Assembly (NCBI GenBank): GCA_031414455.1
Contig: JANNVM010000606.1
Span: 1 to 35,439 of the forward strand
Source: Verrucomicrobiota bacterium
GTDB lineage: Bacteria > Verrucomicrobiota > Verrucomicrobiia > Verrucomicrobiales > V1-33
Length of the DNA: 35,439 nt
Reading direction: 5' to 3'
Shown: positions 24,664-27,157 of the stretch, piece by piece
Layout: the number at the start of each line of letters is the position of its first letter
Numbering within the stretch: position 1 is the first letter of the stretch
The notes under the pieces: model-generated
Told to the model about the DNA's origin: nothing
Database searches by the model: none
The model's input: only the letters and a program-made list of their open reading frames with translations
Position numbers and translations under genes: made by a program

Positions 24664-24760
24664 GGTGCCCGGTGCCCGGTGCTCGGTGCTCGGTGCTCGG
24701 TGCCCGGTGCCCGGTGGTCGGCAGCTGCCTTCTGACACCGCGAACCGAAAACCGAGAACC
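24664..24760. repeat. Heptamer array 8x GGTGCYC-like with an inverted partner array
   Basis: 24664-24719 ggtgccc x2, ggtgctc x3, ggtgccc x2, ggtggtc; 24733-24760 reverse-complements to ggttctc-ggttttc-ggttcgc-ggtgtca. Confidence 0.85.
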
Positions 24761-24817
24761 AGCCCCCGGCTCGCCTCTGCTTCCTCCGCGGCCTCCTGTG
24801 AAAAATATCTTCCCCCG

Positions 24818-24848
24818 GTGATCCGATTGGCGGCCGGAACTCGCATGA
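24818..24848 (+). promoter_or_regulatory. Putative ECF promoter, copy 2
   Basis: GTGATCC-N15-CTCGCATGA, preceded by the A/T tract aaaaatatctt. Confidence 0.65.
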
Positions 24849-24856
24849 GGGGGCGC

Positions 24857-25135
24857 ATGAATCCTCCTGATGCGCATACATTGGAAGCCAACCTCTGCGA
24901 AGGCGGAGTGCTGCTGCATTACCGGCTGGGGGTGGCGGACAGCATCCGGCTGTTGTGCCGGCGCGGGCCGGAGCGGGAGTATGCGATGCTGGCGGAGGAT
25001 GAACCGGCGCCGGTGACAGACTGCCGCCCCAAGCTCGACCCCGACCGTCCCGAGACGCGCTACTACCGCGCCATCCTGAGCTACGCCAATGCCATGTGTC
25101 AGTTCACGAACGAGATCGTGGTGACGGTGCCGTGA
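24857..25135 (+). CDS. Small hypothetical protein (92 aa), probably a beta-sandwich/FN3-like domain
   Basis: Protein-like beta-rich sequence GGVLLHY...IRLLCRRG...DCRPKL...PETRYYRAIL...EIVVTVP; directly follows promoter copy 2. Start 24857 or 24845. Confidence 0.55.
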   Translation: MNPPDAHTLEANLCEGGVLLHYRLGVADSIRLLCRRGPEREYAMLAEDEPAPVTDCRPKLDPDRPETRYYRAILSYANAMCQFTNEIVVTVP

Positions 25136-25137
25136 GT

Positions 25138-25696
25138 GGAAAGGAGTGTCCGCAGATTACGCAGATTTTCGCAGAGGCTAATTCCAATGAGCGTTCAAGA
25201 TGAACCGCATCACGCAGCCCAACGGGCTGAAATGAGAAAGCCCGGGGCCGCGCCCTGAGCCTTATACGGAAGTCGCCGTGACCGCCGAGAGTGGCGCGGA
25301 GCCTTTATAACCAGGTGGGGCGAGGCTGTGCCCGAGCCGACTTCCTGCGGGCCGGCGCCTTAGCGCCGGGCGGCGCGGAGCGGGTGTTGGCACCAGTGGA
25401 AGCGCCCGGGGCGAGAGCCATGACGCGGCGCTTTGCCCGCAGAGAAAGCGAAATGGGGTGGCTCTCGCCCTGCAAGTTCTGCGTGACGACCGCGAGGCTC
25501 CGCGCCCCCTCCGCCCACGGAAATCAGGGCTCGGGCGCAGCCTCGCCCCACCTGGTTTTGATGGGCCTCCGGCCCGGAATCGTCGCTCACGGACTTTCGT
25601 ATAAGGCTCAGGGCGATGCCCCGGGCTCTCTCATGGTGCCCCTTTGGGGCACGGGCACTGCGGAAATCTGCGTAATCTGCGGACTCAATCCTTTCC
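25138..25696. repeat. Composite nested inverted-repeat element (~560 nt)
   Basis: Arm pairs: 25138-25174/25658-25696; 25232-25288/25580-25634; 25309-25338/25528-25557 (29/30); 25372-25381/25497-25506 (10/10); 25409-25420/25459-25470 (12/12); 25429-25434/25445-25450 (6/6). Confidence 0.9.
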
Positions 25697-25718
25697 CGCA
25701 AAATTATTTTTCACCCGC

Positions 25719-25749
25719 ATGATCCTCCGCGGCGCGGAAACTCGCATGA
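25719..25749 (+). promoter_or_regulatory. Putative ECF promoter, copy 3
   Basis: ATGATCC-N15-CTCGCATGA, preceded by the A/T tract aaaattattttt. Confidence 0.65.
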
Positions 25750-25801
25750 GGGAGCGGACCGGGCATTCTTCCGGCTCCGCAAACAAACACAACACTACCA
25801 A

Positions 25802-27157
25802 ATGAAAACACCTCAAGCCCATCGCGGGTTCCGCGCCACCGAGCGCCGGACCTGTTCTCCAAAGAAATCACTGCTGCTCACTGCCGCGGTGCTGCTGTTG
25901 CCGGCAGCGGACCTCACGGCGCAGGCCACCACGTTCGACGTGAACCTGCAGTCCGAGCAGTTCAACCTCTACACCGATCCCTACAACGGGAACGAGATCA
26001 AAGTCGGAGGCTTCTCCGGCCTGTATCCGGTGCCCGGCAAGCCGGGGTCCTTCTATGCGATCACCGACCGCGGACCGACGCCGGACTTTAAGGGCAGCGA
26101 CGGCAAAATCCTCAAGACCTGGGCTGTCCCCGGATTCGGGCCGCACCTGATCACGGTGCGTCTGATGCCCAACGGCACCGCAAAAATCGATGAGGTCAAG
26201 CCGCTCAAACGCCCCAACGGCGGCCACATCACCGGCCTGCCAACCACCAAACCGGCGACTGACATTCCCTACGACTTCAATTTGAATGTCCTGCCTTTTG
26301 ATGAGGACTCCCTCGACGCCGAGGGCATCACGATTGACCCGTGGGGCAACTTCTGGGTCTGCGAGGAATACAAGCCGAGCGTGGCCATGATCGCACCTAA
26401 CGGAAAGGTGCAGATGCGCCTGGTGCCGGCCGGCACGGTGGTGGGCACGGAGGAGGTGCCGACCTATCCGGTGCTGCCTGCAGTCCTGTCCAAACGCCGC
26501 AGCAATCGCGGATTTGAAGGCATCACGGTGTCGGCAGACGGCATCCTCTACGCCATTGTGCAGCGGCCGCTGAACAATCCGAACCGCGCCGCGGCTGACG
26601 CCAATGGCAATGTCCGGCTGGTGGCGATTGATCTCAACACGCTGGGCGGGGCTCCCGTGATCCGGCAGTATCTCTATCAGGTGCCGCCTATCATTCCGAT
26701 CACCCAGCCCCTCAGCATGACGTTAAGTGACCTGTTCTCCACGGGGCCGGGCAGGATGCTGGTGCCGGAACGCGCGACCGACAAACTGTTCGAGATCGAT
26801 GTGACCCATGCCACTGACATCACTCCGTTTGAAGATGGCACAGGGAAGCTGAAAGCTCCGCTCTCCGCCACCAAGACGACGATTGAGCAACTGACTCCCG
26901 CCGACCTCACTCTGCTCGGCATCGTGCCGGTGAGTAAAACAGTCGTGATTGATTCGCTCACGGCGATCAGTCCGCTCCTTGAGAAGGTCGAGGGGGTCTG
27001 CAAGATCGGTAACACGATCTACCTGACGTACGACAACGACTTCAATGTCGCGGAGGCCGGCAGCACTCCTGCCAATCCCAATCCCAACGGGCCATTCGTC
27101 CAACTTGAATTGCTTGGCGCGAATTACCCGAAGATTTGGGCCGTGCAGGTGCCGTGA
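25802..27157 (+). CDS. Secreted esterase-like activity of phytase family protein (beta-propeller)
   Basis: Signal peptide; GGFSGL, AITDRGP, LDAEGI, FWVCEEYKP, RRSNRGFEGI, EKVEG, DNDF. Confidence 0.88.
   Translation: MKTPQAHRGFRATERRTCSPKKSLLLTAAVLLLPAADLTAQATTFDVNLQSEQFNLYTDPYNGNEIKVGGFSGLYPVPGKPGSFYAITDRGPTPDFKGSDGKILKTWAVPGFGPHLITVRLMPNGTAKIDEVKPLKRPNGGHITGLPTTKPATDIPYDFNLNVLPFDEDSLDAEGITIDPWGNFWVCEEYKPSVAMIAPNGKVQMRLVPAGTVVGTEEVPTYPVLPAVLSKRRSNRGFEGITVSADGILYAIVQRPLNNPNRAAADANGNVRLVAIDLNTLGGAPVIRQYLYQVPPIIPITQPLSMTLSDLFSTGPGRMLVPERATDKLFEIDVTHATDITPFEDGTGKLKAPLSATKTTIEQLTPADLTLLGIVPVSKTVVIDSLTAISPLLEKVEGVCKIGNTIYLTYDNDFNVAEAGSTPANPNPNGPFVQLELLGANYPKIWAVQVP

Follow-up and report, generated by a model that had tools for sequence, protein, structure and literature searches.

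A 559-nt block of nested inverted repeats (positions 25138 to 25696) was analyzed in a 35,439-nt stretch of forward-strand DNA, here called the window, which comprises positions 1 to 35,439 of contig JANNVM010000606.1 (C606) in the Verrucomicrobiota metagenome-assembled genome (MAG) GCA_031414455.1. The block is probably made up of at least three independent non-coding mobile repeats that became nested at one intergenic site as DNA-level elements with no dedicated function. From the outside inward, the layers are an element of family A that resembles a miniature inverted-repeat transposable element (MITE), a pair of units resembling the Rfam family Acido-Lenti-1 (RF01687), the terminal repeats of a family-E MITE and a large palindrome, family C, whose arms resemble repetitive extragenic palindromes (REPs). 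These layers belong to separate families, a congener has none of them at the orthologous site, copies of family A occur without an insert, a family-E copy elsewhere has an unoccupied paralogous site and a target duplication, and nesting in the reverse order is present elsewhere in the genome. The original prediction for this DNA described six nested inverted repeats in an intergenic region of some 560 nt, and all of its shells were found in their places. Its proposal of successive insertions agrees with the separate families and the empty sites. The six repeats are not, however, six insertions, as the three inner stems are all parts of family C, and its second shell, although located as described, is really two things, the Acido-Lenti-1-like units and the ends of MITE E.

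Empty orthologous site and independent layers

Congener G012 has the same gene order as the window (protein kinase, GNAT, small open reading frame [ORF], phytase-like gene), and the orthologue of the small ORF occupies the same place, with a translation that is 75% identical. In this congener, the block is missing, and the distance from the small ORF's stop codon to a conserved ATTATTTTT...GGAAAnTCGCATGA box is 16 nt; in the window, the same landmarks are separated by 2 nt, the 559-nt block and a further 6 nt. The whole block is, therefore, an insertion for which the orthologous site in G012 is empty. Only one other genome in the genus, G008, has the phytase-like gene, and its gene order differs.

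Each shell was compared separately with the genome by BLAST. The matches fell on different sets of contigs with independent copy numbers, an outcome that had been named beforehand as support for nesting. Nesting was also observed in the reverse order. The family-C copy at C905 (380-980) has an above-threshold Acido-Lenti-1 doublet lodged in its apex, and this doublet encloses yet another hairpin; a second family-C copy, at C860, holds a GTAG-tagged REP of the kind that flanks a gene resembling those of REP-associated tyrosine transposases (RAYTs) at C1095. This recurrence of nesting in both orders indicated that the layers are independent elements rather than parts of one design.

All or most of the block could instead have arrived in a single transposition through the outer family-A ends, the nesting having taken place earlier at another site. 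Such an event would fit the syntenic site of G012, from which all of the layers are missing at once, a point that also tells against stepwise growth at this locus. It would also fit the joint travel of E ends and a C core, which are found together in the window, at C684, at C486 (as a half copy) and at G011:C814. BLAST and nhmmer searches with the shell-1 and shell-2 segments, however, detected no second junction between family A and layer 2 anywhere in the genome, the joints seen in other metagenome runs were family-A copies with 19 to 29 nt between the arms rather than composites, and the family-A ends of the window are degenerate in comparison with the intact copies. A single composite arrival is, hence, considered unlikely.

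The features of the locus are given below, with coordinates in the window.

24665 to 25135, plus strand: small ORF without a Pfam family, having a probable ATG start near 24846 and a stop codon 2 nt before the block
25138 to 25217, no strand assigned: left part of layer 1 (family A), with an arm (25138-25174) of three 9- to 10-nt CGCAGATT repeats and then an unpartnered interior of about 40 nt
25215 to 25259, minus strand: left unit of layer 2 (Acido-Lenti-1-like), with the outer mini-hairpin CAGCCCAACGGGCTG, a linker and half of hairpin 1
25256 to 25274, plus strand: left terminal inverted repeat of E (layer 3; TGAGCCTTATACGGAAGTC), an exact pattern match
25293 to 25577, plus strand: family C (layer 4), an imperfect palindrome of about 270 nt with GTGG-tagged REP-like arms (25311-25338 and 25528-25555) and an interior holding an optional hairpin (25352-25369), a 10-bp stem, a 12-bp stem and a 6-bp apical stem
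25592 to 25610, minus strand: right terminal inverted repeat of E (layer 3), an exact pattern match
25607 to 25651, plus strand: right unit of layer 2, with two hairpins, including the outer mini-hairpin GTGCCCCTTTGGGGCAC
25652 to 25701, no strand assigned: right arm of layer 1, directly after layer 2
25697 to 25760, plus strand: conserved box that resembles a promoter and precedes the phytase-like gene, lying outside the element and marking its right border
25802 to 27157: phytase-like gene, downstream of the block

An inverted-repeat search placed the paired segments of the block as follows.

25138-25148 with 25686-25696: outermost pair, 11 nt, 91% complementary
25148-25174 with 25658-25684: outer arm pair, 27 nt, 96% complementary
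25218-25274 with 25592-25648: shell-2 pair, 57 nt, 82% complementary
25302-25338 with 25528-25564: shell-3 pair, 37 nt, 89% complementary
25372-25381 with 25497-25506: perfect 10-bp stem, GGCGCGGAGC
25409-25420 with 25459-25470: perfect 12-bp stem

The finer details of the original prediction held up equally well: the periodic repeat of shell 1, read here as 9- to 10-nt units, the outer mini-hairpins of shell 2 and the innermost stems, including that of 6 bp, were all present, and the alternative pairing of 25293-25304 with 25495-25506 was perfect over 12 nt. The block also begins 2 nt after a stop codon, that of the upstream ORF ending at 25135, and ends just before a promoter-like box, as had been described. 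A second copy of this box (24795-24860) lies upstream of the small ORF. With up to 2 mismatches allowed, these two copies, both in the window, were the only ones in the genome; a longer box pattern gave zero matches. The box has the form ATGATCC..GCGGC..GGAAAnTCGCATGAGGG, and both copies are conserved in congener G012. It may be a regulatory site common to the two genes or a promoter for an alternative sigma factor.

Fold-back during assembly had been named as a possible refutation, and the MAG is fragmented, with contigs broken by repeats (8.18 Mb in 1344 contigs, 62% G+C, 95% completeness and 5.5% contamination). Contigs from a second study (runs X3, X5 and X7) cover three stretches of the window with 0 to 3 differing letters.

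25024 to 25296: end of the small ORF, shell 1 and shell 2
25352 to 25553: core
25559 to 26023: right arms of all three shells, followed by the downstream gene

The multicopy left arm of shell 3 (about 25297-25351) was covered by repeat contigs alone, the full stretch being present in no single record. As these independent contigs tile both halves with the same junctions, the block is not an assembly fold-back; such an artefact would also give perfect arms, whereas those of the window are 82 to 96% complementary. An assembly origin, by fold-back or as a chimera, is considered highly improbable.

Repeat families of the block

Layer 2 abuts the right arm of layer 1, so that the insert lies off-center in family A and the nesting is asymmetric at this level. 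The insert borders the third repeat of one arm, and the approximately 40 nt of remaining interior are all on its other side. A regular-expression search gave 61 matches, most of them due to chance, among which visual inspection singled out approximately 15 other loci whose arms consist of three CGCAGATT repeats. Intact copies of 100 to 150 nt without any insert were present at C874, C921, C601 and C1264, and 5-bp direct repeats bracket two copies (ATTAA at C1132 and TTGAG/TTGAT at C921). Among the copies at C921 (17038-17175), C902, C360, C1297 and C601, some carry a Shine-Dalgarno-like GAAGGAG followed after 8 nt by an ORF of 16 to 20 codons (peptides MVTYTRRMSRTSVTTC, MVPCTLWMSRVPVTTRAHRC and MTSPITHRVSREPVITF), together with a small conserved hairpin, ACTCAYC..GGGTGA. 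This mini-ORF is missing from the other copies, including that of the window, and is either a candidate peptide or a matter of structure only.

The units of layer 2 have the layout of Acido-Lenti-1, with two hairpins and a linker of about 12 nt beginning GCU, and both aligned with the full Rfam model (positions 1-46) in a cmscan search, but they scored 26.2 bits (right unit; E value of 0.0022) and 24.2 bits (left unit) against a gathering score of 37. With R1, a model built from 20 Acido-Lenti-1 units of this genome, the right unit scored 16.6 bits (E value of 0.03) and the left unit 13.3 bits (E value of 0.18). A related arm at C222 reached 32 bits with R1 (E value of 8e-6) and is, from position 9 onward, nearly identical to a unit at C7 that scores 30.4 bits with the Rfam model. 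The layer-2 units of the window belong to a local subfamily lying below the Rfam threshold. No Rfam family reached its gathering score anywhere in the window.

Family E is defined by ends of 19 nt, TGAGCCTTATACnnAAGTC, that bound elements of 262 to 357 nt without an ORF. Seven such ends were found in this genome, 46 in congener G011, where they often lie at contig ends, and 5 in G010; reversed patterns gave 0 to 2. The canonical copies of G011 are 281 to 348 nt long, with interiors unrelated to family C. Target duplication was apparent from a comparison of C222 with C7, which share flanks of 173 and 89 nt at 94 to 96% identity. At C222 the flanks are interrupted by a 262-nt E insert with the bounds TGAGCCTTATAC...GTATAAGGCTCA, and a direct repeat, GGGCAACGCCC, which brackets the insert, is present once in C7, the unoccupied paralogue. 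Perfect direct repeats of 11 to 12 bp were detected in three of the eight two-ended E copies. In a fixed 11-nt register, the flanks of the other copies matched at 9 of 11 positions (C684), 8 of 11 (the window) or 3 to 7 of 11 (the rest), as compared with a mean of 6.1 and a maximum of 10 for mismatched flank pairs (n = 56).

The targets of E share the sequence GGGC-N3-GCCC, which is the tip of a small hairpin, and one of them is a GTAG REP hairpin. In the window, hairpin 1 of either layer-2 unit needs the four terminal letters of the adjoining E end for its completion, which fits one hairpin having been split and duplicated by insertion. The E ends surround family C with the same short junctions at all four of the sites named above, and a chimeric E::C element seems, therefore, to have moved as a unit; layers 3 and 4 probably entered the block together. 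An autonomous partner of E was not found: the listing of ends within 41 genomes contained no end pairs spaced by kilobases, and the five G010 sites were MITE-sized copies or ordinary ORFs.

An nhmmer search of the genome gave 80 family-C matches that merged to 48 loci, 34 of them near full length. In a mismatch-tolerant search for the arms, 75 were found on 46 contigs, and 25 contigs carried a paired set, with starts 205 to 232 nt apart. The exceptions to this spacing were C905, widened to 509 nt by its insert, and a doubtful 4.1-kb pair at C1033 that encloses only a polysaccharide deacetylase, a sigma factor and unidentified ORFs, without an autonomous element. Most copies lie outside shells 1 and 2. 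Family C is present in 4 of the 13 congeners searched; two more genera of the same taxonomic family have only the arms, with different spacers (G018, about 155 nt; a single locus in G012, about 110 nt). A strict two-part pattern detected 3 loci in a collection of species genomes, a lower bound, and all were in MAG records of Verrucomicrobiales type. Two copies, C826 663-936 and C701 2789-3060, are near identical, flanks included, and represent either a recent duplication or binned strain variants.

The copies of family C are about 69% alike, and the symmetry within copies (0.688) equals the identity between copies (0.692) so closely as to be uninformative. Three arm subtypes occur, both arms of any one copy being of the same subtype; two of the subtypes are GTGG tagged, and one is GTAG tagged with a 9-bp hairpin of its own. 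The GTAG-type arm thus forms a good hairpin (as at C1172), and the GTGG-type arm of the window, as read from the alignment, pairs with itself over 4 bp. An alignment of 29 copies showed the 10-bp, 12-bp and apical stems to be conserved parts of the family. The small hairpin at 25352-25369 was present in 21 of these copies and absent from 8, in which the left side mirrors the right. The check for covariation suggested in the original prediction gave a clear result: over 37 consensus pairs, 93% of arm cells were paired, and changes on both sides were seen in 74 cells, as opposed to 28.9 in shuffles (none of 500 as high) and 6 to 24 in slid controls.

The original prediction had offered, as its alternative to insertion, a rod-like structured RNA transcribed from a promoter copy. 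Such an RNA could be read through from the promoter of the small ORF and act, for example, as a 3' stabilizer, terminator, insulator or double-stranded RNA. The predicted fold is indeed one rod, as had been anticipated. The plus strand of 25130-25705 has a minimum free energy of -389.7 kcal/mol, compared with a mean of -252.1 kcal/mol (standard deviation of 6.5; z of -21.2) for 100 dinucleotide-preserving shuffles, none of which was as stable, and the minus strand folds at -381.3 kcal/mol (z of -17.7). A functional RNA would be in keeping with this extreme stability, with the compensatory changes that keep the family-C arms paired, with the location of the block between a stop codon, which it follows directly, and the next promoter-like box and with the effects on termination and mRNA stability reported for REPs (PMC3733652). 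The stability is, however, common to both strands, and over the 29 copies of family C the plus orientation folded better in 19, a nonsignificant difference (Wilcoxon P value of 0.10), with 250 versus 222 G-U pairs. By a crude gene caller based on G+C content at third codon positions, 47 of the 48 loci are intergenic, and the copies between codirectional genes are of mixed orientation, 8 running with the genes and 13 against them. These three properties point to a repeat acting as DNA and away from a strand-specific RNA. In addition, the layers are separate dispersed families without an Rfam match at threshold, the orthologous operon manages without the element, and a scan for promoters and terminators found no site within it. 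A functional RNA thus obtained no support and is regarded as improbable, and nested mobile DNA is retained as the explanation.

A further suggestion, that the shells might flank RAYT genes, was not borne out for the shell-3 arms in searches around Y1 transposase genes. In this fragmented MAG, no family-C arms lay within 2.5 kb of 26 Y1_Tnp matches, and a BLAST comparison of all family-C copies with 14 Y1 loci gave only short matches that belonged to another REP family. No family-C copy was matched by BLAST at 15 Y1 loci of five relatives, and an arm-pattern search of five relatives gave no link to RAYTs.

Acido-Lenti-1 motifs around Y1 transposase genes

In this genome and across the phylum, bona fide Acido-Lenti-1 motifs form inverted repeats around IS200-like Y1 transposase genes. 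From 150 of 1953 candidates that were scored, 57 matches to RF01687 were obtained at an E value of ≤1, and 24 of these were above the gathering score. Many of the matches form inverted pairs about 150 to 160 nt apart, and doublets of this type without a gene are dispersed in the genome. At C1024 (2923-3562), two units scoring 42.2 and 41.5 bits flank a gene for a 148-amino-acid Y1 protein, the left unit being on the minus strand and the right unit on the plus strand. Searches with R1 detected the same flanking layout at C431 and C1057 and a one-sided layout at C1154, beside a contig end; one C1024 unit and one C431 unit had been included in the R1 training set, the other flanking units not. 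As a rough control, no R1 match with an E value of ≤0.01 was present in the 35-kb window.

Similar arrangements were observed outside this genome. In relatives, the motif was on both sides of a Y1 gene at G019:C120 and G011:C756 and on one side at G012:C10. Among 301 phylum genomes, 38 had a match to the C1024 protein, and homologues at 29 loci were taken from 29 of these, the present genome not among them. The motif was on both sides at 12 loci (inverted and within 250 nt), on one side at 13 and on neither side at 4. The Rfam model itself matched 7 of the first 20 of these loci, 3 of them above threshold.

The C1024 protein matched the IS200/IS605 family NF033573 of NCBIfam with 62.4 bits (cutoff of 55) and Pfam Y1_Tnp with 74.3 bits, and its Y1 motif, YILKQEEHH, conforms to Y---Q--HH, the pattern characteristic of TnpA_Y1 subclass 1.2. 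IS200/IS605 elements have subterminal hairpins at both ends that are on the same strand and are not inverted repeats. The units at C1024, C431 and C1057 are inverted, which is the layout of REPtrons and TIRtrons, not the same-strand layout of the IS200/IS605 type. The proteins of subclass 1.2 have been described as mostly cyanobacterial or from Bacteroidetes and as generally lacking terminal secondary structures (Quentin 2018, PMC6006769); the signature is the same here, but the host is of the Verrucomicrobiota and the ends are defined by two hairpins.

Acido-Lenti-1 has been filed as a small RNA (Weinberg 2010, PMC2864571), as opposed to its behavior here as an inverted DNA repeat around Y1 genes. 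The literature passages on the motif that were consulted do not mention transposases, and the material on Acido-Lenti-1 seen in the supplement of that study (PMC2864571) consists of tables, a seed alignment and a diagram, without text on genomic context. The Rfam family may correspond to DNA at the end of a Y1 unit and not to a small RNA. The 'double palindromic TIRs' (terminal inverted repeats) that Di Nocera and coworkers describe for acidobacterial Y1 genes may be the same thing. We are evenly divided about the fuller, two-part proposal, in which RF01687 would be the inverted end of a Y1 HUH gene of subclass-1.2 type and of its gene-less doublets and, at the same time, its hairpin tips and those of REPs would be favored sites of a MITE that duplicates 11 to 12 bp.

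Several other repeats associated with Acido-Lenti-1 or Y1 genes were noted. Eight Acido-Lenti-1 units (at C189, C218, C428, C533, C534, C798, C911 and C1026) are identical, inclusive of 25-nt flanks, with several being near contig ends, and these are probably the end of a larger element that has recently become multicopy. At a phylum locus, L145 (G195:C2, 2010-2340), five Acido-Lenti-1-like units follow one another in tandem every 71 to 72 nt, immediately next to a Y1 gene. RAYT-like genes encoding proteins of 233 and 254 amino acids were found at C1095 (7990-9010) and C854 (11590-12400), each with its own flanking hairpin repeats (GTAG-tagged GTAGTCGTGGACTTTAGTCC at C1095 and GAGGGGGCAGGCTGCCCCCTC at C854); the genome thus contains several REPtron-like units that differ in their REPs. 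About a dozen ORFs of 360 to 390 amino acids, members of a multicopy family on C437, C856, C279, C587, C620, C943, C706, C833 and other contigs, match only positions 6-61 of Pfam Y1_Tnp (27 to 37 bits).

Proposed growth of the block and relation to known systems

A history can be proposed for the locus, with an inferred order of events. A family-A MITE would first have inserted immediately downstream of the small ORF's stop codon, and an Acido-Lenti-1-like hairpin unit would then have come to sit off-center within it. A family-E MITE would subsequently have entered the GGGC-N3-GCCC tip of the first hairpin of this unit, thereby duplicating the tip, and in this E copy a family-C palindrome would already have replaced the usual interior. 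If such elements favor short GC-rich hairpin tips, each insertion would supply new tips, and the palindrome could grow from the inside. The direct repeats of E and A point to a cut-and-paste enzyme making staggered cuts, and a Y1 HUH enzyme would be the candidate for the Acido-Lenti-1-type units. A transcriptional side effect of the block, such as termination behind the small ORF, is conceivable.

Several observations weigh against this history. The sole syntenic relative lacks all of the layers and no intermediate stage of the locus was found. The layer-2 units are below the Rfam gathering score and match R1 weakly, a search of the genome for the reconstructed double-headed hairpin target in unoccupied form gave no match, and the putative target duplication of the window E copy is within the range of unrelated GGG...CCC flanks. 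The searches turned up no transposase bounded by ends of A, E or C. The strong covariation of the family-C arms also fits selection on a fold. Finally, as the MAG is fragmented and contaminated, copy numbers are lower bounds and some of the apparent paralogues could be strain variants.

Nested hairpin repeats of this kind are a known form of genomic clutter, of which the families described here are new members. Mosaics of REPs, of REP doublets (REPINs) and of bacterial interspersed mosaic elements have been described. Di Nocera (2013, PMC3733652) reports REPs with a GTGG tag in the verrucomicrobium O. terrae, dimers of REPs within larger palindromes, spacers of 20 to 100 nt and head-to-head dimers with conserved spacers. 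The association of REPs with RAYTs is treated in Nunvar 2010 (PMC2817692), Bertels and Rainey 2011 (PMC3116915) and Ton-Hoang 2012 (PMC3333891). Family C is likewise intergenic, GC rich, hairpin forming and dispersed, with head-to-head pairs of arms tagged 5' GT(A/G)G and a conserved spacer, a layout that matches the dimers of that description. Its spacer of about 160 to 190 nt is, however, longer and itself structured, and the GTGG arm of the window is a weak hairpin. Moreover, unlike in a REPtron, no RAYT gene flanked by family-C arms was present among the 26 Y1 matches and the 15 loci of relatives; family C works like a REPIN but is, for this reason, not filed as one. The Y1 genes flanked by Acido-Lenti-1 are similar to REPtrons and TIRtrons in lying between inverted structured repeats.

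Family E resembles the MITEs and insertion sequences that target REPs in having terminal inverted repeats and direct repeats, in having no coding capacity and in landing in the tips of palindromes. IS1397, for example, is an insertion sequence that targets REP hairpins. Family E differs in the length of its duplication (11 to 12 bp), in using tips of Acido-Lenti-1 type as well as those of REPs and in that no autonomous partner was found. Insertion sequences with REP targets are the subject of Tobes and Pareja 2006 (PMC1525189).

The block itself is ordinary selfish DNA, and its worth is that of a worked example, in which the empty sites and the target duplication show how very long intergenic palindromes can grow through insertion at hairpin tips. 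Four uncatalogued repeat families of a Verrucomicrobiales lineage are named as a result; repeats such as these break metagenome assemblies and can pass for structured RNAs. The link between Acido-Lenti-1 and Y1 genes gives an orphan Rfam family a testable function, as the ends of a Y1 transposase unit, and would supply DNA substrates to a Y1 subclass that has been described as lacking them. If this account is true, Russian-doll palindromes would be a readable record of hierarchical hairpin targeting, in which the elements serve one another as safe insertion sites.

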